From a virus (taxonomy: Duplodnaviria; Caudoviricetes), in the IMG/VR virus record IMGVR_UViG_3300029288_000077, positions 1 through 64,000 of that record: 64,000 nucleotides of DNA; one strand, 5' to 3'. The notes below the pieces were generated by a model that was not told where the DNA came from, searched no databases, and was given only the letters and a program-made list of their open reading frames with translations. Numbering within the stretch: position 1 is the stretch's first letter; each line of letters starts with the position of its first letter. The position numbers and the translations under genes are program-made. Positions 2,407 to 47,678 of this stretch are shown in pieces.

Positions 2407-4311
2407 ATGAATAACATTGAGGAACTAAGAAAGAAGCTTGTGATAGCATCTTACTATTATTACAACGAACAACCTACTATGTCAGATGATGAGTACGATG
2501 GTCTCAAAGAGCAGTTGAAGAAGCTGAGTCCATCAGATGAAGTTTTGAAATTGGTTGGTGCGCCTGTGCCCGGCACAGCAAAGAAGGTGGAGCACAGGAT
2601 CCCTATGGGCAGTTTAGACAAAGTGGTGCGCGAGGATGAGTTCAAAAAGTGGGCAGAAAAAATCGGCGTTGGTAACTTTGTGATCGAGGAAAAGTTAGAT
2701 GGGATCAGTGTTGAGTTGGTTTATCAGGACGGGTTGTTGAGGTCTGCTAGCACACGTGGTGATGGTAAGGTGGGGGAGGAAATCATTCACAATATGGTGC
2801 TGGTGCAGAACGTGCCAGTGTCTGTAAAGCACAAGGGTGAGTTGTGTGTGCGTGGAGAGCTGGTGTTGAGCACAGAAAATTTCGACCAGCACTTTTTTAA
2901 TGAATACAGAAACCCGCGCAACACGGTTAGTGGTTTGTCTCGTAAAAAGGGTTTTAACCCACTGATGCAACACATGTCATTTGTGTGCCATGATGTATTG
3001 GTAAGTGTTTCAAAGGAGTCTGACAAGCTTGTGCTTGCACGCAACTTGGGGTTTGAGGTAGTAAAATACCATGTGGTTGGAGTAGATAACGCCATTAAGT
3101 GGTATGATAAATACGTAACAGAGCTTAGGGATGAGTGTGAATATGAAATCGATGGGTTGGTAGTGAAGTGCAATGATCTGTCGATTTCTGCTCAGGAGGA
3201 TCTAGATTCGGTAATTCAGTCAGGCACCCCCAAATATCAGATTGCCTGGAAGTTTCCTTCACAAACAAGTGTTAGTGTGATTCGTGCTGTTGAATGGAGT
3301 GTGGGTGTTGGTGGAAGGATCACCCCCGTTGCAATCATTGATCCTACGGACATTGGTGGGGTGACCATTACTAGGGTGAATCTACATAATTTGAGTAATA
3401 TTCAGTCCCTTGGTCTGAAGATCGGCAGCACTGTCTCTGTGAGCAGACGCAATGATGTAATTCCGCACATTGAAAAGGTGCTGTTGTCTGGTGAGGGAGA
3501 AGCCATTGGTGTGAGTGTGTGCCCTGAGTGCGGAGAAAAGATCTCGTGGGTTGGTGAATTTGTTGAATGTCATAATCCTGCTTGCAAGTCCAAGCTGTTT
3601 GGAGATCTAAAGAAGTGGATTCAAGTGATGGAACTGGATCAACTTGGTGATTCTTTTATTGAAGATGCTATTAATAGGTTTGGGGTGTGTTGTGTGGCTG
3701 ATTTATATAAGATCCCTCAAGAGGTGATGACAACCTTTGAGGGATATGGGCCGTCCAAGGCAAATACTATTATTTCTTCAATCCAGTCGAAGAAGAAGGT
3801 GAGTTTGCCAAAATTTATGGCTGCGTTGAATATTGGTGGCGTGTCTGAAAGTACTTTTAGCCTATTGTATGATAATGGATTCGATACGCTCGATAAGTTG
3901 TATTCGGCCACTGTCTGTGTTGTGGATGCTGTTCCTGGAATTGGACACAGCAAAGCGCTGGCTATTTTTGACGGCATATCGAAGAAGAAGATGGACATTG
4001 AACTGTTGTTGGTGGCTGGGATTGAAATTGAAGAAAAGTCAAATGATACCAGTCTGCCGTTGTGCGGTATGAGCTTTTGTTTTACGGGCGCACTTAGCAT
4101 CAAACGCAGTAGTGCCGAAAAGTTAGTCAAAAAGTTGGGCGGAGACGTGAAAAGCACGGTTACCAAGGGTCTGACATACTTAGTGCAGGCCGACCCAAAT
4201 TCTACCTCCAGCAAGTCGGTGAAGGCCAGGCAAAACGGCACCAAAATCATCAACGAGGATGGGTTTGTGGAAATCACTGGCTTTTCTATTGATGCCATAG
4301 CAGGTTTATGA
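2407..4311 (+). CDS. ligA: NAD-dependent DNA ligase
   Basis: EEKLDG adenylation motif, STRGDG, NPRN, DGLVVK, Cys4 Zn finger, HhH repeats, C-terminal BRCT (FCFTG...GG). Confidence 0.97.
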   Translation: MNNIEELRKKLVIASYYYYNEQPTMSDDEYDGLKEQLKKLSPSDEVLKLVGAPVPGTAKKVEHRIPMGSLDKVVREDEFKKWAEKIGVGNFVIEEKLDGISVELVYQDGLLRSASTRGDGKVGEEIIHNMVLVQNVPVSVKHKGELCVRGELVLSTENFDQHFFNEYRNPRNTVSGLSRKKGFNPLMQHMSFVCHDVLVSVSKESDKLVLARNLGFEVVKYHVVGVDNAIKWYDKYVTELRDECEYEIDGLVVKCNDLSISAQEDLDSVIQSGTPKYQIAWKFPSQTSVSVIRAVEWSVGVGGRITPVAIIDPTDIGGVTITRVNLHNLSNIQSLGLKIGSTVSVSRRNDVIPHIEKVLLSGEGEAIGVSVCPECGEKISWVGEFVECHNPACKSKLFGDLKKWIQVMELDQLGDSFIEDAINRFGVCCVADLYKIPQEVMTTFEGYGPSKANTIISSIQSKKKVSLPKFMAALNIGGVSESTFSLLYDNGFDTLDKLYSATVCVVDAVPGIGHSKALAIFDGISKKKMDIELLLVAGIEIEEKSNDTSLPLCGMSFCFTGALSIKRSSAEKLVKKLGGDVKSTVTKGLTYLVQADPNSTSSKSVKARQNGTKIINEDGFVEITGFSIDAIAGL

Positions 4312-4441: not shown

Positions 4442-5056
4442 GTGATGATGACGCCGACCATCGACGTTATGGAGTATCAAGGTTTGGTTGTGTCGATTGC
4501 CCGTCGTTATTGCCGAAACGGGCAGGAGCTGTTAGACTTCATACAAGAGGGCAACATTGGTTTGTTGAAAGCCAGGGATAAGTATGACCCTGATCGTCCA
4601 GCGAAGTTCTCAACCGTAGCCCACCACTGGATTACCAAGTATGTTCGTATGGCGGCCATGAAGCGCGGGCTGATTCATGTGCCGTTCCGGGTGCAGTACA
4701 CCGCTCGACGTGTCAACCGTGAGTGTGCCAAAACCTATGCTCGTACAGGTATGGATCTCAGACAAACCAATTTTTACGCTGATACCTCAACTTCTACTGC
4801 TGATGGCGTTGAGTGTGAGGAGCTGCCTGTGGAATGTTGTGCTGACGGTGTTCTTGAGAATCGAGAAGAACGAGCATTGATCAACCAGGCTTTTGAACTG
4901 CTGTCTGACAAGGAAAGGGACGTACTTCTGTTTCGTATGGAGGGGGAGGAGCTGCAAGCGATTGGTAGTATGCTTGGGTGTTCGAAGCAGCGAGTCAATC
5001 AGATCTTCAACAAGGCGGTGTGCAAAATCCAGTCTTTTGTTCAGTTGAACTCCTGA
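4442..5056 (+). CDS. RNA polymerase sigma70-family factor (regions 2 and 4)
   Basis: LVVSIARRY, DFIQEGNIGLLKA..KYDP..KFSTVA.HWI; region 4 LSDKER...LQAIG..LGCSKQRVNQI. Confidence 0.9.
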   Translation: MMMTPTIDVMEYQGLVVSIARRYCRNGQELLDFIQEGNIGLLKARDKYDPDRPAKFSTVAHHWITKYVRMAAMKRGLIHVPFRVQYTARRVNRECAKTYARTGMDLRQTNFYADTSTSTADGVECEELPVECCADGVLENREERALINQAFELLSDKERDVLLFRMEGEELQAIGSMLGCSKQRVNQIFNKAVCKIQSFVQLNS

Positions 5057-5111: not shown

Positions 5112-5612
5112 ATGCCTGACAAGGTGATGTTGAATATACCAGAAAAGTTGGTGATACTGCCAATACCAATAAAGATTACAAGTCCTTTCGGTGATCGGGT
5201 ATTAAAAGACAAAGAACTGCGCGGAGGAAAAAAACACTTTCATAATGGTGTGGATTTGAGTGCTCCTGTTGGCACCCCATGTTTGTGTCCGTTGCCTGGT
5301 AAAGTAGTGAAGAGGTACTGGTCAGATTTGGGTGGGTGGCAGTTGATCATAAAACACGAAAATAACTTGTTTACGGGATGGGCGCACCTTAGCAAATACG
5401 CAGATGGGGTGGTGGTTGGTTCAGAACTGAAGACAGGTCAAGTATGCTGTTATACTGGCAACTCTGGAGTCAGCGGCAAGAAGGACGAGAAAACTGGTGA
5501 GTTGTTAAAGAATGGGTATGTCCCGCATCTGCACTTTACCTTGAGAGTTGGTAAGGTGTTTATTGACCCTGAAATTTACATAGCCCAGGGTGTTAATTTA
5601 ATAGCTGGTTGA
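5112..5612 (+). CDS. M23 family metallopeptidase (peptidoglycan hydrolase)
   Basis: ITSPFG, HNGVDL, AHL, GNSG, PHLHF motifs. Confidence 0.9.
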   Translation: MPDKVMLNIPEKLVILPIPIKITSPFGDRVLKDKELRGGKKHFHNGVDLSAPVGTPCLCPLPGKVVKRYWSDLGGWQLIIKHENNLFTGWAHLSKYADGVVVGSELKTGQVCCYTGNSGVSGKKDEKTGELLKNGYVPHLHFTLRVGKVFIDPEIYIAQGVNLIAG

Positions 5613-6252
5613 GTACGTATCCTGTCCGGTGTTCTTGTATGTAATCCAAATCTTTTTCTGTAACCAAAATTCCATTGTAATGCAGATCGTGCAGTTTCCA
5701 CTCCCGAAACACAAAGGTGTCTTTTAGATAGTCAGAATATAAATATGTATTCGTTGCACGGGTTACTATTTCTGCGTTCAAGAATAGCTGCGACTTTTGT
5801 TTATCATAGTGTTTCTTGGTTTCATTGGTTTCTTCTGTCTTTACTCCCATTGGATAAGTAAGGAAAATGTGTTGTAGGTGTTCTGGCTTTATGCCAATAC
5901 TTTGTAACATTTTTTCATATGCTTCGTTTATGTACTTGTTACTAGATGGGGCGCTCCAATCTCCTTGATATATAAGCGATGAAAACCAAAACCTGTCTAT
6001 GAGTATTGGTTGACTGGCGTGTGTTGCTTCTGCCAAAGCCTGCTTTTGTTCATTTATTAGTGCATCTAGCCAGTTTTTCTTTACTGTTTCGTAGTCTGGT
6101 GTTCCTTTCATAGTTACCAAGTCTGAAAAGGCTTTACTAGAACACAGTGATTGTGATGGAAAAGCAAGGCGAGTACATTTTACTTTCTTTGAAACCCTGT
6201 CTATTAGACTAGTCTTTCCGGTATTGTCGATGCCATCTATGGTTATGATCAT
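5593..6252 (-). CDS. thymidylate/deoxynucleotide monophosphate kinase-like protein
   Basis: IITIDGIDNTGKTS P-loop, LIDRFWFSSLIYQG; only convincing minus-strand gene. Confidence 0.8.
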   Translation of the reverse strand: MIITIDGIDNTGKTSLIDRVSKKVKCTRLAFPSQSLCSSKAFSDLVTMKGTPDYETVKKNWLDALINEQKQALAEATHASQPILIDRFWFSSLIYQGDWSAPSSNKYINEAYEKMLQSIGIKPEHLQHIFLTYPMGVKTEETNETKKHYDKQKSQLFLNAEIVTRATNTYLYSDYLKDTFVFREWKLHDLHYNGILVTEKDLDYIQEHRTGYVLNQLLN

Positions 6253-10474: not shown

Positions 10475-10546
10475 GCCCCCATAGGCTAACGGCAAAACCG
10501 AGGCGTTTATACCGCCTGATTCTCCGTTCGAATCGGAGTGGGGGCA
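10475..10546 (+). tRNA. tRNA-Ile(TAT)
   Basis: acceptor GCCCCCA/TGGGGGC, anticodon arm AGGCG-TTTATAC-CGCCT, T arm CTCCG-TTCGAAT-CGGAG, discriminator A. Confidence 0.85.
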
Positions 10547-10813
10547 TTTCATCAAAGGTGGTAGTAAAATGAGACTGGCAATCTCCATTGAAGTTGGTCC
10601 TGATGATGGAAATGAAGAAGAGACTGTATTAGAATCAAAAAATATTATTTCTTCCTTGTTGCCGCACTCTAACAAATATGTTGTAAAGGCAGCTTTGGTT
10701 AGAGATGGAGATCGCAGCCAGGGTAATTTACTGTACCCAAAATTGGAAGGAAGATTTGGGCAACACTATAGGAATAAAAAGGTTGACATTAGAGAAATTC
10801 TAAAGAAGGAATA

Positions 10814-41400: not shown

Positions 41401-43473
41401 CTTTGAAATTGTTAAAATACCCGTTGAGGATAGTGTGTCTGTGGGCATGAGGTGCGCTTTATTTAACACCCCTTTGTTGTATGGTAATTTCACAGGTAAA
41501 TTTGAGAACGAATTGGTGAGGATGTGTAGAAAAAAGGGGAAAGGCGTGCTACAACCATATAGATGCATTGAGTGCATTACAGCCGAAAAAGTGTGTAATA
41601 GTGCATCAGCACTGAGGAACTTGTGATATGTGTCAGCCAAAGTGTGTGGTTGAAAAGGATGAGATCAAGTTTATTGATATGACCCCGGATGATTTATTGC
41701 CAACCAGGATCTTAATAGCCTATCTCAGCAGCACTTATTCAACCTGGGAAACGGAAGGTCTAGATGACAGCCAAAAGAAGATGTATGACATATTGAATCA
41801 AGCACAACTGGAGAGACGAGACATACTGCGCAGCGCGATTGACCTGTTGCATACCTTCCCATTTGGTGTCAAGAAGTGACTATACTACAACTACAAGAGT
41901 TGCACGGTGCGTTACTTGAAGCGTGCATAACTATGAAGCGCGTGTTGTGTGGGGTGAAGTTCGAAGGTGTATTTCAAAATGAAGTATCCAGACCATTGGC
42001 TGCAGTAAGTAAACAATTGTTTGTAGTCAAGAAGCTGATAGAGGAAGCAAATAATGTTGGTGGTAAACAGCAATTTTGAAGAAGTAAAACTGTGTGACAC
42101 GTTTGAGTTGCTGTCAAACGATTTGTGCAGAGTATTTGTTTCCGGGGACACAATTGTTGTTAGGAAGAGAGATGGCATACATATGTTGGATATGTATGTG
42201 GGTGAAATCTTTGTGTGCGGTGTTCATATAAAGATGGTGTCAGGACCAATAGGCGAAACATATGTTGTTTTGTGGAAAGATGAGTGGCCCGATGAAAGTT
42301 TGTTGGGGTGTGTGCTATATAATGATGGTGACAACTTAGATGATCGGTATAAGACAGTGTTGAGGTTGTTGTTTGATGAAGTGAAAGGTGAGTGTGGTGA
42401 GTGCAATGAAACTGCCTGAAATTCTAATAGTATCGGTGCTTGCAGCTCTTGTTGTATTTACTTGTGCGAACATACCTAAGTATGCGCCGCCCGAAATGCC
42501 GAAACCTTCCGAGTGTGAGTTAGTGATTGACAGGATCACTAATTCGTTGAATGAGGCCCGGGACGCACTGAAGACTAGCATCAAAGGAAAGATAGTTCAT
42601 TTCGAAAATAGACTGCTTTCGGTCATGTGCTTGGAGAAGGAGCATGTGGCGGTACATGTCATGCTCGATGCAGTTATCAAGCTGGAAGGTGACAAGGCAC
42701 CACACGTGTGTATCTCTTCGCTGTTTATTATAGAAGGAGAATTTAGTAAAGATGGTGAATTGGACGCAAAATTGTTGGGCGTGTACCCCGGCGAAGAAAC
42801 GATTTGTGAGTACCAGGAAGAGTAGTCGTGCGGAAAAGCAAGGAATTTTATATTGCCAGGACCGCCTCTGTCCGTGAGTTGTATTTACTGGGGGTTGGCG
42901 TTCATCAGATAAAGAAATATCTGAATGTGCCTAATGGTACAAGTGTCAAGAATATGGTTAAGGATTTGGAATACGGATCAGATTTTGATTTGGACGCTGT
43001 TTGTTTATATATTCTTCATAGAGGTGATGTAGTAGAACTGTACTGTAATGAACACAAATCTATAGCGTTTATTGCAAATAAGTATAGTGTAAAAGGTGCT
43101 GTCATAAAGCAGGTGCTCAAAACTGTGGGCGTTGTTATTGACAACCGCAGGCGCATGAGCGAACTAGAAGAAAAGACGCTGTGCGCAGTAAAATTACTTG
43201 GATGGACACCATTTGGTGGTATGTGGTTAATGGGCGCAAACAAAATTAACTGGATAATTCATGAGCACGAAGAAAGAGTGAGCCGCAAAAGAGTAGGTAA
43301 AATAGAACAAAAGAAAATCGAGCAACCAATTAGACCTGAGCTAAGTAAGATCAAGGATGCGGCGCACCAAAATGTGGGTGTGTTTTTGAATGCGCGAGAG
43401 TGTCAAAGGCTGTACCTGATAAACTTGGATTACAGCAAAATATGACCACACATGACCATACGTTGTGGGTATA

Positions 43474-43501
43474 TTTACTCCCTGACGATTGATGGTATAA
43501 T
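43474..43501 (+). promoter_or_regulatory. promoter of the non-coding locus, TTTACT-N16-TATAAT
   Basis: -10 ends a few nt before first stem of structured region. Confidence 0.7.
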
Positions 43502-43905
43502 ACATTTGAAGATAGCAGAGATCATTGGAAATCGGCGGCACTAGAAAAAGCCAAGAAATGGAGGTTAAATATGGACTGGTCGAGTACAAAGCCCTGACCA
43601 AGCTTTGACGTACGGCAGAGCGAGGAAGGGATCTTCAAGCTTGTGTGGTGTGCTGGTCTGGCCAGGCTAACACAGGTGCGAGGAAGAGTATTGGACCGTG
43701 AAAGTACGCCCCCAGGGATGGGACGCCACCCTGGAGTCACGGTTTCCTTGAAATCCAAAATCTAAGAAAGATGGTGCTCCAATGCGCTAGTTTGATTTGA
43801 CACCAAACCGTTTGACATGTGAATGCTGAAAGACGAAAGTGTGATTGAGTATAACAAATTAATGGAGCGCAAATGCTGTGGCGGTATAAATCCGTAAGGC
43901 ACCAT

Positions 43906-44385
43906 GTTCTTTGAAAAGTAATGTTCTTCTAACCAGGTGCGTGTGGCGACCGAAGACTTTTGTTGTTTTCGGTTTTGTGCTAACAGGTATTTGGTTAGAG
44001 GAAAAGGAGGCTGGCTTACGTTGCCGGAAAACTGGCGGGCTAGCACGCTGTGTGGTGGTAGAAATCCACAAGCCTCCTTCGTTCTTTGAAAAGTAATGGC
44101 TGATGTGGTGGAAAACCGCCCCGCGATTGACTGTCGCACATCATTTGATCCTGGGAGGGCTTGATCACCCTCCCCGATAAAATGACTGGTGTGGGGTGCC
44201 TACGTGCTGGGCTCAAACCATCCAATAGTCAAGGAAAGCGAGCACGCGCATCAGCCAGTTCTTTGAAAAGCGGGTGTTGCGATCTTATGTTGATGTGCAC
44301 AGAGACATAAGACAGGCGACTTGCTACTGCCACGGTGGGATGCAAGTGTGGTTCAATTCCACGAACGCCCATTCTGTTCTTTGAA
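43906..44385 (+). repeat. four boxA-like direct repeats GTTCTTTGAA(AAGTAATG)
   Basis: copies at 43906-43923 and 44081-44098 (18/18 identical), 44258-44270, 44376-44385. Confidence 0.9.
44272..44371 (+). ncRNA. tRNA-like element (acceptor stem + T arm, no canonical D/anticodon arms)
   Basis: GGGTGTT/AACGCCC-A and TGTGG-TTCAATT-CCACG. Confidence 0.65.
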
Positions 44386-44810
44386 TTTTTGCGGTTTGGC
44401 TCGTGCTACCGTTCCGTGCAAACCGGTACTGTCTGGTAGAGTCAGGCCACGAGCCAATAATGTTCCCGAACTGCATACCGGCGGTCGTGCAGGCGGTTGG
44501 TGTGTGGTCGGGATCTGGGGGCCTGATTAGCCCCGCCTACTCCAGGGTGCCCTTAAGTGGACGCCTAAGTGGTGCCGCCGCAGTGCGACGCCCGGAGTAG
44601 TTGTCCCACTGCATTGGTAGATGCAGTGTGTTCGTGCCTGTGCTAAAGGACGAACATGGGGAGCCGCCGTCCCCTAGGAGCAAGGAGATGTCCTACCAGA
44701 GCATCGAACGGCACTTTTGGAATCGCTTAGGGCAGCATCCTTGGCACATGGGCCTAACGTCGGATGGCCAACTACGTGCACGGGATGCTGCCCATTGTTG
44801 CAGGTGAAGC

Positions 44811-44948
44811 ATGAAGATCTTGATCCTAGAAGACTCTGCGAACGCTGTTGGGTGGAACAACATCAAGGCGGCGTTGCCCAATGCTATCAAGGCACCCAAT
44901 CTGTGGGAGTACTTTGATGAAGTGTTCAGGATGCTGAAACTGCCGTGA
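44811..44948 (+). CDS. 45-aa ORF, possibly internally deleted receiver-like domain
   Basis: MKILILED fused directly to SANAVG..NIKAAL. Confidence 0.35.
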   Translation: MKILILEDSANAVGWNNIKAALPNAIKAPNLWEYFDEVFRMLKLP

Positions 44949-45761
44949 TAACTTCACCAAATGGGTGGTTGTCACCTGATGGTGTTTTTCATGAATGTGC
45001 ACACGCAAGGCACGCTGATTGTGCCGGGAAAATAGCTAGAAGTCACTTACCAGAAAATGAGCCCATTTTTGACTCAGAAAAGATATTAGAAGAGTGGGGG
45101 TATATTAAGATACTTGACGGCGGGGCATGTGTGGCGTATGCTACTGGCGTGGTACACAAAAGGCCGACGCAAGCACAAATCGATGCGGTGTTCGATTACC
45201 ACCAGAAATGTAGGAAGGAACTTCCATATTGGATTGGAGAGCAGGAATGAAAGTTACTCTTGAAATGGATGAAAACCAAGCACGTATCGTACTGCAGGCT
45301 TTGGACTGTTTGTCAAGATTGTACTCCGGGCAAGTAGATGTAGTCCTGCACACAGTGCTTGTACACAGCAAGCGGTGGAAGGAACTGTGTGAGGTGACTG
45401 GTGGGCATGGTTCTGCTATTGAGTCTATCAGACACCTAGCTTTGTTGATCGGTGAGTTGATGACTGGTTTGCCTAGTGGTACTTTCTGGAGTATTGGTAA
45501 CAGACGAGACATGCATGAAAATGCCCAAACTGCTTGGGACATCAATGAAGTGTTGAGACATGCGCTGGCTTGGTTCAGGAATCCTAAAGGCGGAGCAACT
45601 GTTGACTTTGGCGAGCCAATGCATTGGAATCCAGATCAACCACTCCCCAAAGTAAAAATCGAATGAAGCTGTTGCTGTTGGCATTACTGCTGTTTGTGGT
45701 TCGTTTGCTAATCATTGACAATCATTAATCTACATCATAAATAAATAGAGTATAATGCAAG

Positions 45762-47678
45762 GTGATGGGTGCTGCACTGAATATGAAAGATGGCCTGTTC
45801 CGTGACATAGATAATATCATAAATGGGGAAAGTATAAGTACTTTTACCAGTGTGGTGAATACTGGTTTAGTGACCCTCGAACGCCCACCAAATGAAGTAG
45901 TTTTTATAGAATCACCTAAATTTCTAAATGGCCCAAAGGAGCTGTGGCCAGAACAGTATAGGTTTACAAGAGACTTCTACGAGCTTAGTTGTCCTGTCTG
46001 CAATGACTTGGACAAAATGTACCGTGGTGGTGAAATTAAAAGAGAAGACGATGTACTGTTTGAGTATAATGTGTGTCCAAAATGTGGTGCTAGAAAAGAA
46101 GATGTTGTAGAAGCACTCAATTTTTATTATAGCATTAACGGTGTGGTGGGGATGCGTTCCGGTAAGTCTACTGGCATGGGGTGTTTTTTGGCTGCATTTA
46201 CTGCCGATATTTTGTGTGTACCTGATCTGCACAAAAAGCTGGGTATAGTTGAATCGGATGCTTTGGATGGCACGTTTGTGGCCGCTGCACAAAAGCAAGC
46301 TTCAGATACTATATGGAGCAAATTTAAGGGCATGTATGATAATAGTCCTTGGTTCCAGTACTACAAACATGCTTTGCTTGATATTGAGGTGAACGATAAG
46401 CGGTTTAGGCGCGGTGAGTTGTACTGGGAGACAGACAATCTCATACACTGGCAAGATAAACACATACGGCTTACTGCTGTGCCCACCAACTCAGCTACGC
46501 AGGCTGGACGCACGCGCATTTTTGCGGTGATAGACGAGCTGGCTAGGTTAGACTCAGGAGAAAGCAAGCGGTCTGCATCAGAAGTGTACCGCGTGCTTGA
46601 AAACTCATTGTACACTGTGCGTCAAGCTGTGTCTGAGTTGCGTGCAAAAGGCAATATAGAGATACCAGATGCTGTGATGGCTTCTATATCTTCCCCGTTG
46701 TTTCAAACCGACAAGTCTATGAGTCTGTTGGATGATGCTAAGATCGACAAGCGCATATATGCTTTCAAGAAGGCTACGTGGGAATTCAATCCACACTCCA
46801 AAAAAGAAGATTTTGCTTCATTATACGCACGCGATCCGATAGGCACAGAGCGCGATTTTGGTGCCAACCCGCCTGGAGCCGAAAACCCGTTTATTAAGGA
46901 CCCAAACATAATCAAGGCATGCACGGATTACAAGCGCACCTCGTGTTTTACTCTTAGAGAAAATTACTTTGATCTCAAAGCAGGAACAGAAGGTAATGAA
47001 GCTACATTCCATTTTGTGAAGATGGATATTTTGAATATGTCTTATATGAATTTAGCTGAGTACGTGATACACTGTGACCCAGGCGAAACCGGAGACAGCT
47101 TTTCACTTACACTAGCACACAAACAAGACGGTGTTTGTTGTATAGACGGTTACATAGAAATACGCCCGGTTCCGGAGGGAAGTCAATTTAGTAAAGTACC
47201 TCGTTCCGTACACTTTCCCTCAGTGGTGAATTTGATATTGGCTTTGCACAAAAAGATAAAAATCAGATTGGTGACATACGACAAATGGAATAGTACTGAA
47301 CAAATACACCGCCTCATAGATGCAGGTATTATAGCCATAGGTAAAAACCTGACCAGGGATGATCATCTAAATTTCCTGGAAGGTTTGAATAGTGGTTGGG
47401 TTAGTATGCCTGCACCGGAAGTAGAGGTAGCCGATCCTTCAAATATGAGAAATGTGCCGTGTGCCCAGGCACTGTATGAATTGAGTAAATTAAATGATAA
47501 TGGAGCAAAAGTAGATCACCCACCGTATGGTCACAACGACATTATACAGGGCGGGGTTGGGGTATACCGATCTTTGATGCATCCAGACCTAATACCAATT
47601 GAAAAGAAAAAGACCAAACAAACGTGGCAAAACCGACAGAAAGTGCCGCCAGTTACTTTAACCAGACTTAGACGTTAG
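45762..47678 (+). CDS. terminase large subunit
   Basis: Walker A GMRSGKST, Walker B IFAVIDELA, ISSP coupling motif, nuclease IHCDPG..GDSF, TYDKWNS, DHP..GHNDI. Confidence 0.88.
   Translation: MMGAALNMKDGLFRDIDNIINGESISTFTSVVNTGLVTLERPPNEVVFIESPKFLNGPKELWPEQYRFTRDFYELSCPVCNDLDKMYRGGEIKREDDVLFEYNVCPKCGARKEDVVEALNFYYSINGVVGMRSGKSTGMGCFLAAFTADILCVPDLHKKLGIVESDALDGTFVAAAQKQASDTIWSKFKGMYDNSPWFQYYKHALLDIEVNDKRFRRGELYWETDNLIHWQDKHIRLTAVPTNSATQAGRTRIFAVIDELARLDSGESKRSASEVYRVLENSLYTVRQAVSELRAKGNIEIPDAVMASISSPLFQTDKSMSLLDDAKIDKRIYAFKKATWEFNPHSKKEDFASLYARDPIGTERDFGANPPGAENPFIKDPNIIKACTDYKRTSCFTLRENYFDLKAGTEGNEATFHFVKMDILNMSYMNLAEYVIHCDPGETGDSFSLTLAHKQDGVCCIDGYIEIRPVPEGSQFSKVPRSVHFPSVVNLILALHKKIKIRLVTYDKWNSTEQIHRLIDAGIIAIGKNLTRDDHLNFLEGLNSGWVSMPAPEVEVADPSNMRNVPCAQALYELSKLNDNGAKVDHPPYGHNDIIQGGVGVYRSLMHPDLIPIEKKKTKQTWQNRQKVPPVTLTRLRR

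Follow-up and report, generated by a model that had tools for sequence, protein, structure and literature searches.

Phage genomes encode tRNAs, tmRNAs and a small number of giant RNAs, and to our knowledge the expression of their untranslated RNA genes has seldom been studied. In the tRNA region of T4, small stable RNAs (species 1 and 2, rnaC/rnaD) are co-transcribed in a stable-RNA cluster and matured by tRNA-processing enzymes via their tRNA-like ends; we know of no boxA punctuation in T4.

Bacterial rrn leaders and 16S-23S spacers, with their boxA, Nus-factor antitermination complex (rrnTAC) and leader-trailer helices, belong to an untranslated unit driven by a strong promoter. Within a few nucleotides of boxA comes the 5' strand of the long-range helix that encloses a stable RNA. 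The locus described here is alike in these respects and carries the same 12-nt boxA as the spacers of many phyla. It differs in that the cargo is not rRNA, the element is phage-borne and no boxB or boxC was recognized. In addition, rrn has a single boxA per leader or spacer, whereas the array has four, plus one or two that have decayed, at a spacing of ~120-177 nt. The nut sites of lambda (boxA-boxB plus the N protein) likewise present a phage boxA to host NusB-S10 just after a promoter, a role that we infer for the array. However, the rrn consensus fits the boxA of the array closely and that of lambda less well, neither boxB nor an N analogue was identified here, and here large structured RNAs lie between several boxA copies.

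GOLLD and ROOL (RF02032, RF03087) are, like the array, large structured phage-encoded RNAs with tRNA-like elements nearby, but the array looks modular rather than like one conserved fold and is without a known homologue family. The array also resembles the tRNA, tmRNA and GOLLD islands of large phage genomes (IMG/VR loci L005, L006/L040, L017/L028, L035 and L046), in which GTTCTTTGAA lies a few nucleotides 5' of stem-closed stable RNAs and several units stand in tandem. In contrast to those islands, its cargo is not a recognizable tRNA, tmRNA or GOLLD, and it has no sequence likeness to them beyond the motif.

On a phage-like contig of 184 kb, the array occupies ~1.3 kb without a credible gene, just 5' of the genes for DNA packaging. 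The window referred to below is the whole stretch of DNA that was analyzed (64,000 nucleotides). Because the array is structured and punctuated by boxA, the phage probably makes its own stable RNAs as its host makes rRNA.

Promoter, gene content and folding of the array

The preliminary description of this DNA had placed a TTTACT-N16-TATAAT promoter ahead of the array. The promoter is present, scores 10/12 and is the top sigma-70 match within 42500-46000; transcription is predicted to start near 43508. Coding resumes 3' of the array and extends as far as the large terminase subunit, and the packaging and structural genes are all on the + strand:

43474-43501, + strand: sigma-70-type promoter, with -35 TTTACT, a 16-nt spacer and -10 TATAAT preceded by TG (extended)
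44811-44948, + strand: first ORF 3' of the array, 45 aa, with AGGTGA ahead
45762-47678, + strand: large terminase subunit (TerL; phrog_17415, E 5e-65)

The region was said to lack any credible gene, and this agrees with what we found. Between 43452 and 44807, + strand ORFs reach at most 69 aa, and the codon-usage score is below 0 from ~43300 to 44800 (contig median +13.5). As for a protein ORF across the region, raised earlier as the contrary case, none of ten candidate ORFs (61-125 aa, both strands) matched Pfam or PHROG at E<0.1. The GC content, described as raised, is 0.50-0.60 in the array region compared with 0.39-0.46 in its flanks.

Comparison with shuffled sequences bears out the proposal of an RNA structured on the + strand with the help of G-U pairs. 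For the region 43474-44800, the + strand MFE was -504.7 kcal/mol, against -419.5 +/- 11.7 kcal/mol for the shuffles (z -7.3). The excess is beyond that of the - strand (z -4.1) and of seven coding controls of equal length (z +0.57 to -2.70). The full-length MFE was -516.9 kcal/mol on the + strand and -415.3 kcal/mol on the - strand, an asymmetry that arises because 56 of the 416 predicted pairs are G-U. All eleven stems listed in the preliminary description are complementary where it had placed them, and each recurs in the MFE structure of the full region or in that of its domain folded alone. From 5' to 3', the predicted structures are as follows:

43505-43640, + strand: domain A, multibranch, closing stem UUUGAAGAU/AUCUUCAAG
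43641-43744, + strand: two hairpins, at 43641-43676 and 43694-43744 (domain B, stem ACCGUGA/UCACGGU)
43771-43905, + strand: domain C, ~135 nt, 8-bp closing stem
43924-44003, + strand: domain D, an 80-nt near-continuous long hairpin with 4 G-U pairs in its outer 17 bp
44004-44079, + strand: domain E, 76 nt, 9-bp closing stem and an inner AAAA-loop hairpin
44098-44256, + strand: domain F, 159-nt multibranch with a 10-bp closing stem; z -3.9 (+), -3.3 (-)
44272-44371, + strand: domain G, a tRNA-like four-way junction with two long arms
44396-44457, + strand: domain H, a hairpin with a 10-bp closing stem; z -3.4 (+)
44471-44728, + strand: a GC-rich (58-60%) run of hairpins, at 44462-44514, 44518-44534, 44537-44600, 44607-44628 and 44631-44654
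44730-44793, + strand: terminal hairpin N, with a 12-bp outer stem, 17 nt ahead of the next start codon; z -5.5 (+)

The excess of structure differs between domains. Domain D has a z of -10.1 on the + strand, where none of 200 shuffles folded as well, and of -3.5 on the - strand. The + strand values of domains B, G, E and C are -3.2, -2.8, -2.5 and -1.5, respectively, and the main hairpins of the 44471-44728 run have z -4.7, -3.6 and -4.2. Domain A, whose closing stem is lost in the full-length fold, has z -2.1 (+) and -1.4 (-) in isolation, and segment 44660-44728 (z +1.3) does not outdo its shuffles; in domain A, domain C and this segment the excess is absent or slight. Because hairpin N is without a U-tract, it is not an intrinsic terminator, and the promoter/terminator scan found no + strand terminator at the array end.

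The folds bear on whether the region is a single large ornate RNA of the GOLLD or ROOL kind, kept intact over 1.3 kb with the boxA copies as uncleaved flexible linkers. The full-length MFE structure does include some long-range pairs, and GOLLD and ROOL occur near tRNA islands and have disordered linkers, in some cases with tRNAs (PMC12286853). In two of the IMG/VR loci (L017 and L028), GOLLD starts behind the same motif. However, each domain of the array is closed by its own stem and capping the pair span at 250 nt costs just 12 kcal/mol, so little long-range structure is needed. Elsewhere in phages the motif separates independent genes (tRNAs, tmRNA), and even at E<=10 an Rfam search of the region returned only two chance-level matches (E 3-8). 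We consider a single large RNA unlikely.

The linker between the domains

A repeated linker, and with it a layout of repeat, structured cargo and repeat, had been noted earlier. The layout holds, with four exact linkers between stem-closed domains, and so does the repeat; it is not anonymous, however, but matches the consensus of rrn-type boxA. The linker reads GTTCTTTGAA(AAG). Exact copies of GTTCTTTGAA start at 43906, 44081, 44258 and 44376, all on the + strand, and there are none elsewhere in the window. A search of the 184 kb contig with the linker 12-mer, allowing up to one mismatch, gave no comparable cluster. The copies lie 400-900 nt past the promoter and 4-10 nt ahead of closing stems:

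43906-43918, + strand: boxA copy 1, GTTCTTTGAAAAG, within an 18-nt exact repeat ending at 43923
44081-44093, + strand: boxA copy 2, GTTCTTTGAAAAG, within the same 18-nt repeat, ending at 44098
44258-44270, + strand: boxA copy 3, GTTCTTTGAAAAG
44376-44385, + strand: boxA copy 4, GTTCTTTGAA, then TTTTTG
43743-43754, + strand: degenerate boxA-like linker (weak call, from sequence only), TTTCCTTGAAAT, 9/12 identical to GTTCTTTGAAAA
44462-44470, + strand: possible decayed linker (weak call), GTTCCCGAA, placed after a stem as the boxA copies are

The boxA consensus of gamma-proteobacteria is GYTCTTTAANA (PMC5725501). The linker matches it at 10 of 11 positions. Its first 12 nt are identical to GTTCTTTGAAAACTGAAT, a primer for the mycoplasma 16S-23S spacer (PMC4312986). 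Scanning genome contigs for GTTCTTTGAAAA-N115-145-GGTGGATGCC gave at least 120 matches, where ~2 were expected by chance. Among the matches listed were Bacillota, Mycoplasma, Rhodanobacter/Dyella, Vampirovibrio and Saprospiraceae, as well as Acidobacteriota, Gemmatimonadales, Planctomycetota, Paceibacterota and Saccharibacteria. At least 120 genomes, spread over many phyla, carry the same 12-mer ~110-120 nt ahead of their 23S rRNA. When six such loci were searched with Rfam, the motif lay in the 16S-23S spacer of the five that have both rRNA genes, 3' of the spacer tRNAs where present and ~110-120 nt ahead of the 23S gene. Going by these matches, the linker is a consensus rrn-type boxA, an identity that suggests antitermination or chaperoning by host Nus factors and the biogenesis of stable RNAs. 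In thermodynamic folding the boxA copies are not clearly single-stranded (mean P(unpaired) 0.40-0.70, compared with a region mean of 0.36), and weak CUUU/AAAG pairing is predicted between neighboring copies.

The motif also recurs ahead of stable RNAs in other phages. We collected 45 IMG/VR loci with two motif copies, of which at least 12 are non-coding arrays. In such phage arrays, the motif ends 3-6 nt ahead of tRNA-Pro, tRNA-Arg and tmRNA genes, and it lies ~455 nt ahead of the Rfam-matched GOLLD core in L017 and L028. What is new here is the repetition of boxA inside the array. We found no paper that brings GOLLD and boxA together, or that reports boxA in phage tRNA arrays, in a literature coverage that was incomplete and does not prove novelty.

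The linker could serve a purpose unrelated to Nus factors. Being A/U-rich and having stable stems on both sides, it might be a single-stranded endonuclease site (for RNase E, Y or G). Alternatively, its TTGAAA, which has 5/6 of the -35 consensus, might be the -35 of an internal promoter for each unit, and a weak -10 (9/12) lies seventeen nt past copy 3. However, only one of the four copies has such a -10-like hexamer, and in Bacteroidota-type phage arrays the motif stands 3' of the promoter and is not part of it. An exact 10-13-mer common to the rrn spacers of many phyla and to the BoxA consensus also exceeds what a loose RNase site needs. We regard this pair of readings as quite improbable.

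tRNA-like domains and searches for relatives

At the 3' ends of domains C, E and G, a T-arm-like hairpin is predicted to stack on an acceptor-like stem. In domain C, this hairpin (GCGG-UAUAAAU-CCGU) adjoins the closing stem. Domain E (GUGG-UAGAAAU-CCAC) has the size and shape of a tRNA without an anticodon loop. Domain G has a 7-bp acceptor-like stem (GGGUGUU/AACGCCC), a discriminator A with CCA not encoded, and a canonical-looking T arm (UGUGG-UUCAAUU-CCACG); its MFE structure is also the centroid, and its - strand z is -0.5. Domains C and E have a common 3' module, GCUGUG..GYGG-UAKAAAU-CCRY-AAG, followed by the closing strand and then by boxA, and one pair of the 4-bp hairpin differs between them by a compensatory change (C-G to U-A). 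Judged by this likeness, the two modules are paralogous, and domain G has the same architecture. The domains had been called unrelated in sequence, which does not hold for C and E and, in architecture, for G.

A tRNA assignment (RF00005), which would call for a cloverleaf comprising D arm, 7-nt anticodon loop and T arm, was rejected: ARAGORN made no call in 43400-44900, either by default or with introns allowed, and Rfam gave no match at E<=10. Domain G has the acceptor and T arms only, and domain E has a 4-nt loop at the place of the anticodon loop. ARAGORN calls E a tRNA only at a lowered threshold; calls made at lowered thresholds were of low confidence and overlapped one another on both strands, and they were not trusted. 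A tmRNA, standard or two-piece, combines a tRNA-like domain with pseudoknots and a reading frame for the tag; here a permuted tmRNA appeared only at the 80% threshold and with an atypical tag, and the region had no match to the Rfam tmRNA clan.

The array could also be a decaying tRNA island, in which former tRNA genes behind boxA persist as functionless pseudogenes. In this case, the T-arm and acceptor-like ends kept in C, E and G would be remnants, ARAGORN does call E and others at relaxed thresholds, and real tRNAs stand in the same layout in other phages. The strong excess of structure (z -7.3) speaks against decay. Units of 80-160 nt, one of them a near-perfect 80-nt hairpin (z -10.1), are also unlike the remnants of 75-nt tRNAs, and four linkers remain identical. 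We find such decay highly improbable.

Searches of known families and for homologous loci gave no counterpart of the array. Across the whole window, Rfam at gathering thresholds returned only four tRNAs, all outside the array. The lack of a recognized match, noted earlier, was borne out, GOLLD and ROOL included, and no covariance model of any other large RNA in Rfam matched. CRISPR repeats are 23-50 nt long, have unique spacers of similar length and lie near cas genes. The array was rejected as a CRISPR, with repeats of 10-18 nt, structured intervals of 100-165 nt and no cas among the neighbors scanned.

A blastn search of the array against 50,697 phage records found no match. The 18-nt linker and the pattern of T loop plus boxA each had one chance match in IMG/VR, inside a gene. 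Against the collected IMG/VR loci, blastn and nhmmer recovered the motif alone. Scanning metagenomes for two 13-mers 150-178 nt apart gave, among the matches listed, a family of dispersed ~166-bp repeats that is unrelated to the array, comes from a single sample set and was set aside. Syntenic loci upstream of related terminases had been suggested as a source of comparison, but all five relatives (48-59% TerL identity) lack the array and have dense coding in its place; in the closest, TerL alone is conserved. The search for antisense targets in the phage or in the small genome co-binned with it gave nothing beyond chance (best 15 nt, E 1.3).

An rrn-style operon as the favored reading

We hold with moderate confidence that the locus is an rrn-style operon of putative phage stable RNAs, in which each unit consists of a boxA and a stem-closed RNA, is transcribed by a Nus-modified polymerase and is probably cut apart. 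For this operon we infer transcription, Nus binding, processing and a function of the cargo. The strong promoter at 43474-43501 would give a ~1.3 kb untranslated + strand transcript, in whose units a single-stranded boxA (GUUCUUUGAAAAG) would precede, by 4-10 nt, an RNA enclosed in a terminal stem of its own. As boxA does in the leaders and 16S-23S spacers of rrn, each copy would load host NusB-S10 and the other Nus factors on RNA polymerase, and this loading would prevent early termination of an untranslated and highly structured transcript. The 5' strand of the closing stem would be tethered near the RNA exit channel, which may help the stem to form; for rrn, boxA tethering promotes the leader-trailer helix according to one model (PMC10250234). 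Host nucleases that process tRNA and rRNA would probably free the stem-closed units as separate stable RNAs. Since the array has no terminator at its 3' end, transcription by the modified polymerase would also extend into the packaging and structural genes.

That last step could be the main role of the locus. The array might be a cis-acting, nut-like leader of the late operon, whose boxA copies and hairpins load Nus factors and whose domains are regulatory or incidental rather than products. It lies directly 5' of the terminase and structural genes, which share its + strand, and ends without an intrinsic terminator, and lambda nut sites and rrn leaders act in this way (PMC10250234). Yet one boxA suffices in rrn and in lambda, and loading would not call for four exact copies with differing stem-closed RNAs. 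The five TerL relatives do without such a leader, and neither boxB nor an N-like protein was identified. A leader alone therefore appears doubtful to us, but it is compatible with an operon of stable RNAs, and both could hold.

The RNAs might also act as a weapon. If abundant, stem-closed and tRNA-shaped RNAs, each released with or beside a consensus boxA, could titrate NusB-S10 from host rrn, or mimic the substrates of host tRNA-directed enzymes (anticodon nucleases, RNase P/Z, the CCA-adding enzyme), while the boxA copies also make the late-gene polymerase termination-proof. We view this as a long shot.

The occurrence of boxA between the units of the array and ahead of tRNA, tmRNA and GOLLD in unrelated large phages suggests a general rule, by which phages transcribe and fold their own stable RNAs with machinery borrowed from rrn. 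Outside rrn operons, boxA may thus offer a cheap sequence handle for new phage non-coding RNA genes. Some of the cargo RNAs of the array are predicted to be tRNA-shaped yet non-decoding, with nothing alike in Rfam.

A candidate host is the co-binned small genome. The array has no match in 60 of its relatives, and a search of 400 other genomes from its phylum did not find TerL. Rho was not detected in the co-binned genome, and the motif does not occur ahead of its tRNAs. It encodes NusB and has the boxA-like variants GTTCTCTGACAA ahead of 23S and GTCATTTGAAAT ahead of 16S, which differ somewhat from the phage linker. Because of this variant boxA, the lack of a tRNA motif and of a detected Rho, and the absence of TerL from the 400 genomes, it is uncertain which host the phage has and whether Rho antitermination is needed, and the motif would neither confirm nor exclude the co-binned genome as host.

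The first hairpin of domain F has an AAAA loop, as does the inner hairpin of domain E; the placement of these two hairpins is unlike that of boxB.

Promoter, gene content and folding of the array

The preliminary description placed a gene-free, GC-rich stretch of structured RNA directly behind a promoter, and the sequence agrees on each of these points. Within 42500-46000 the highest-ranking promoter-like site is the TG-extended TTTACT-16-TATAAT at 43474-43501. From there to 44811, where the next credible start codon lies, + strand ORFs reach 69 aa at most. ORFs of the region gave no Pfam or PHROG matches on either strand, and a codon-usage score trained on the long ORFs of the contig is negative throughout. 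GC content is 0.50-0.60, compared with 0.39-0.46 in the flanks. Directly upstream of the promoter lies a gene for a 205-aa protein (42828-43445) that has no Pfam or PHROG match. Two helix-turn-helix-like segments can be seen in it by eye, which makes the protein a candidate for a phage transcription factor acting at the array promoter.

All of the stems proposed earlier are complementary at the coordinates given for them and present in the predicted folds. With pairs limited to 250 nt and 40 dinucleotide shuffles, the + strand of 43504-44800 folds at -504.7 kcal/mol vs -419.5 +/- 11.7 for the shuffles (z -7.3). In the same test the - strand reaches z -4.1, and seven coding controls of the same length range from +0.57 to -2.70. 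Without the span limit, the strands lie ~100 kcal/mol apart. G-U pairs, previously read as a sign of selection on the + strand, make up 56 of 416 predicted pairs. The predicted structure exceeds chance and is strand-specific. The support is uneven, with single-domain z values (200 shuffles) of -10.1 for D, -5.5 for N, -3.4 for H, -2.8 for G, -2.5 for E and -1.5 for C. Predicted folding is convincing for D, N, the GC-rich hairpins, F, G and H; for A, C and 44660-44728 it is not convincing on folding energy alone. The linkers between domains are not clearly unpaired in the predicted folding.

A boxA linker and its cargo

The linker motif GTTCTTTGAA has exactly four copies in the window (boxA1-boxA4, starting at 43906, 44081, 44258 and 44376), all on the + strand, and no comparable cluster was found elsewhere in the 184 kb contig. 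Three copies reach GTTCTTTGAAAAG and two reach an 18-mer. The earlier claim of one repeated linker between domains is thus upheld, and the repeat now has an identity. It matches the gamma-proteobacterial BoxA consensus GYTCTTTAANA (PMC5725501) at 10 of 11 positions. The standard mycoplasma 16S-23S spacer primer starts with GTTCTTTGAAAA (PMC4312986). In 185,579 species genomes, the combination of GTTCTTTGAAAA and, 115-145 nt further on, the conserved 23S 5' sequence GGTGGATGCC turned up at least 120 times, vs about two expected by chance. The matches listed include Bacillota, Mycoplasma, Rhodanobacter/Dyella/Luteibacter, Vampirovibrio, Saprospiraceae, Acidobacteriota, Gemmatimonadales, Planctomycetota, Fibrobacterota, Paceibacterota and Saccharibacteria. 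Six listed loci were searched with Rfam. In all five with both rRNA genes, the motif lies in the 16S-23S spacer, following any spacer tRNAs and ~110-120 nt ahead of the 23S gene. Given the consensus match, the primer identity, the genome scan and the Rfam-mapped spacers, the linker is, judged by sequence, the boxA that is widely conserved in rrn spacers.

The order of elements is promoter, A, two hairpins, degenerate linker, C, boxA1, D and E, boxA2, F, boxA3, G, boxA4, H, possible decayed linker, GC-rich hairpin cluster, N and first ORF. The imperfect linkers are:

43743-43754, + strand, degenerate linker (9/12 positions)
44462-44470, + strand, possible decayed linker (by sequence)

From the end of boxA to the next closing stem there are 4 nt (G), 7 nt (F), 8 nt (D) or 10 nt (H). 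D is a near-perfect 80-nt hairpin, and E and F each contain an AAAA-loop hairpin. C and E have paralogous 3' ends (GCUGUG..GYGG-UAKAAAU-CCRY-AAG, then the closing-stem 3' strand, then boxA), which differ in one stem pair (C-G in C, U-A in E). G shares this architecture in canonical tRNA form, with a 7-bp acceptor-like stem, a discriminator A and a 5-bp T stem whose loop reads UUCAAUU. Identity as tRNAs was rejected for C, E and G, as the D arm and the 7-nt anticodon loop are both missing; none of the three is called by ARAGORN (default settings) or matched by the Rfam tRNA model.

The boxA system of rrn operons and lambda nut are both in the textbooks. New here are an exact consensus boxA repeated as punctuation inside an array, and cargo RNAs that match no known family, some of them tRNA-shaped yet non-decoding. 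Our literature search, of incomplete coverage, found nothing linking boxA with GOLLD or phage tRNA arrays.

Conservation and boxA arrays in other phages

No homologues of the array were found in the phage records, IMG/VR, fetched loci, co-binned relatives and metagenomes searched, and there is therefore no cross-species covariation. Syntenic loci upstream of related terminases had been proposed as a source of homologues; all five relatives (48-59% identity) are densely coding there and lack the array, which makes it lineage-specific.

The layout does recur. When IMG/VR was scanned for pairs of motif copies 150-180 nt apart, 45 loci came up. Some two thirds of them lie inside long ORFs, as coincidences or repeats in proteins; non-coding arrays account for at least 12. 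Within these arrays, genuine tRNA-Pro/tRNA-Arg (L006/L040, L046) and tmRNA (L005, L035) genes begin 3-6 nt after the end of the motif. In two further loci it lies 455 nt before an Rfam-matched GOLLD 3' core (RF02032, 308-315 bits):

L017, motif at 4824 (reverse complement), GOLLD core at 5288-5683
L028, motif at 3164 (reverse complement), GOLLD core at 3628-4038

In both, GTTCTTTGAA directly follows a Bacteroidota-type promoter and a tRNA follows the core. At 455 nt, the motif would sit at the expected start of the GOLLD variable 5' domain. Because promoter, motif and core lie in series, GOLLD may be transcribed behind a boxA leader. The present array, where the motif ends 4-10 nt before a closing stem, has the arrangement seen at these tRNA and tmRNA genes. 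The motif is the only sequence that it has in common with the tRNA, tmRNA and GOLLD arrays.

Some of these arrays also contain tRNA-like genes of 110-160 nt, in which a mid-insert of 50-100 nt accompanies normal acceptor, D and T arms (L021, reverse complement ~10505-10660; L035, reverse complement ~20-175; L040, 586-700, 1062-1165 and 1190-1320). ARAGORN made no call for these genes, which may be expanded tRNAs or contain introns. In L040 a conserved TTGGCACG-N4/5-TTGAT element (155-187, 1325-1375, 2270-2315) precedes several motif copies, ~15 nt before GTTCTTTGAA, and looks like a -24/-12 promoter of the sigma-54 type. In one sample group, >80 contigs (L052-L131; Ga0209149, Ga0209339 and related metagenome contigs) carry a very abundant ~166-bp repeat that has GTTCTTTGAAAAG at its borders and contains a palindrome, CCAAGATGGCGGATCTCCGCCATCTTGG; this repeat is unrelated to the array.

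Proposed mechanism and candidate host

For the Nus-factor antitermination complex of rrn operons to assemble, boxA is both necessary and sufficient; in a current model its tether to NusB-S10, at the exit channel for RNA, holds the leader strand, which pairs with the trailer once that emerges (PMC10250234). In the present array the 5' strand of a closing helix around a structured RNA follows boxA by a few nt, which is the same design, used four times. The most likely reading of the region is therefore an operon of phage stable RNAs on the rrn pattern. Beyond the sequence anatomy, we infer that a Nus-modified polymerase would transcribe the array, each boxA renewing or reinforcing the complex and helping its own unit to close. 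Host tRNA/rRNA-processing nucleases would release the units, with C, E and G as RNase P/Z-type substrates. No terminator was found after hairpin N, so the same polymerase would run past N into the packaging genes. For that reason, a role as a cis-acting late-operon leader is compatible with the stable-RNA operon and does not exclude it.

The window spans 64 kb from the start of a 183.8 kb contig (42% GC) in a 1.26 Mb assembly. Since its long ORFs are nearly all on the + strand and it carries a terminase gene, the contig is a large phage-like genome. What remains of the assembly looks like a bacterial genome of very small size (relatives 0.5-1.0 Mb) with unlinked 16S and 23S genes, whose lengths far exceed the models and thus indicate large insertions or introns. 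The genes concerned are:

45762-47678 (window), + strand, large terminase subunit (TerL; phrog_17415, E 5e-65; PF27249 in its relatives)
G000 C1:428217-429964, - strand, 16S, 1748 nt vs 1533 in the model
G000 C1:678254-682496, + strand, 23S, 4243 nt vs 2925 in the model
G000 C1:302445-302846, NusB

The phage terminase was not found in 400 other genomes of this bacterium's phylum, and the co-binned genome is therefore unproven as host. Its rrn leaders hold only variants related to the linker, GTTCTCTGACAA and GTCATTTGAAAT, the boxA-like GTTCTCTGACAA lying 168 nt upstream of the 23S gene. A Rho RNA-binding domain was not detected in the assembly (rated 97.6% complete). If this genome, with NusB but no detectable Rho, is the host, boxA would serve chaperoning or speed, not Rho antitermination.

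The gene right before the terminase (45229-45666) matches a PHROG 'transcriptional regulator' (phrog_36225, E 5e-8), and the terminase relatives have a WYL-domain protein at the corresponding position before TerL.
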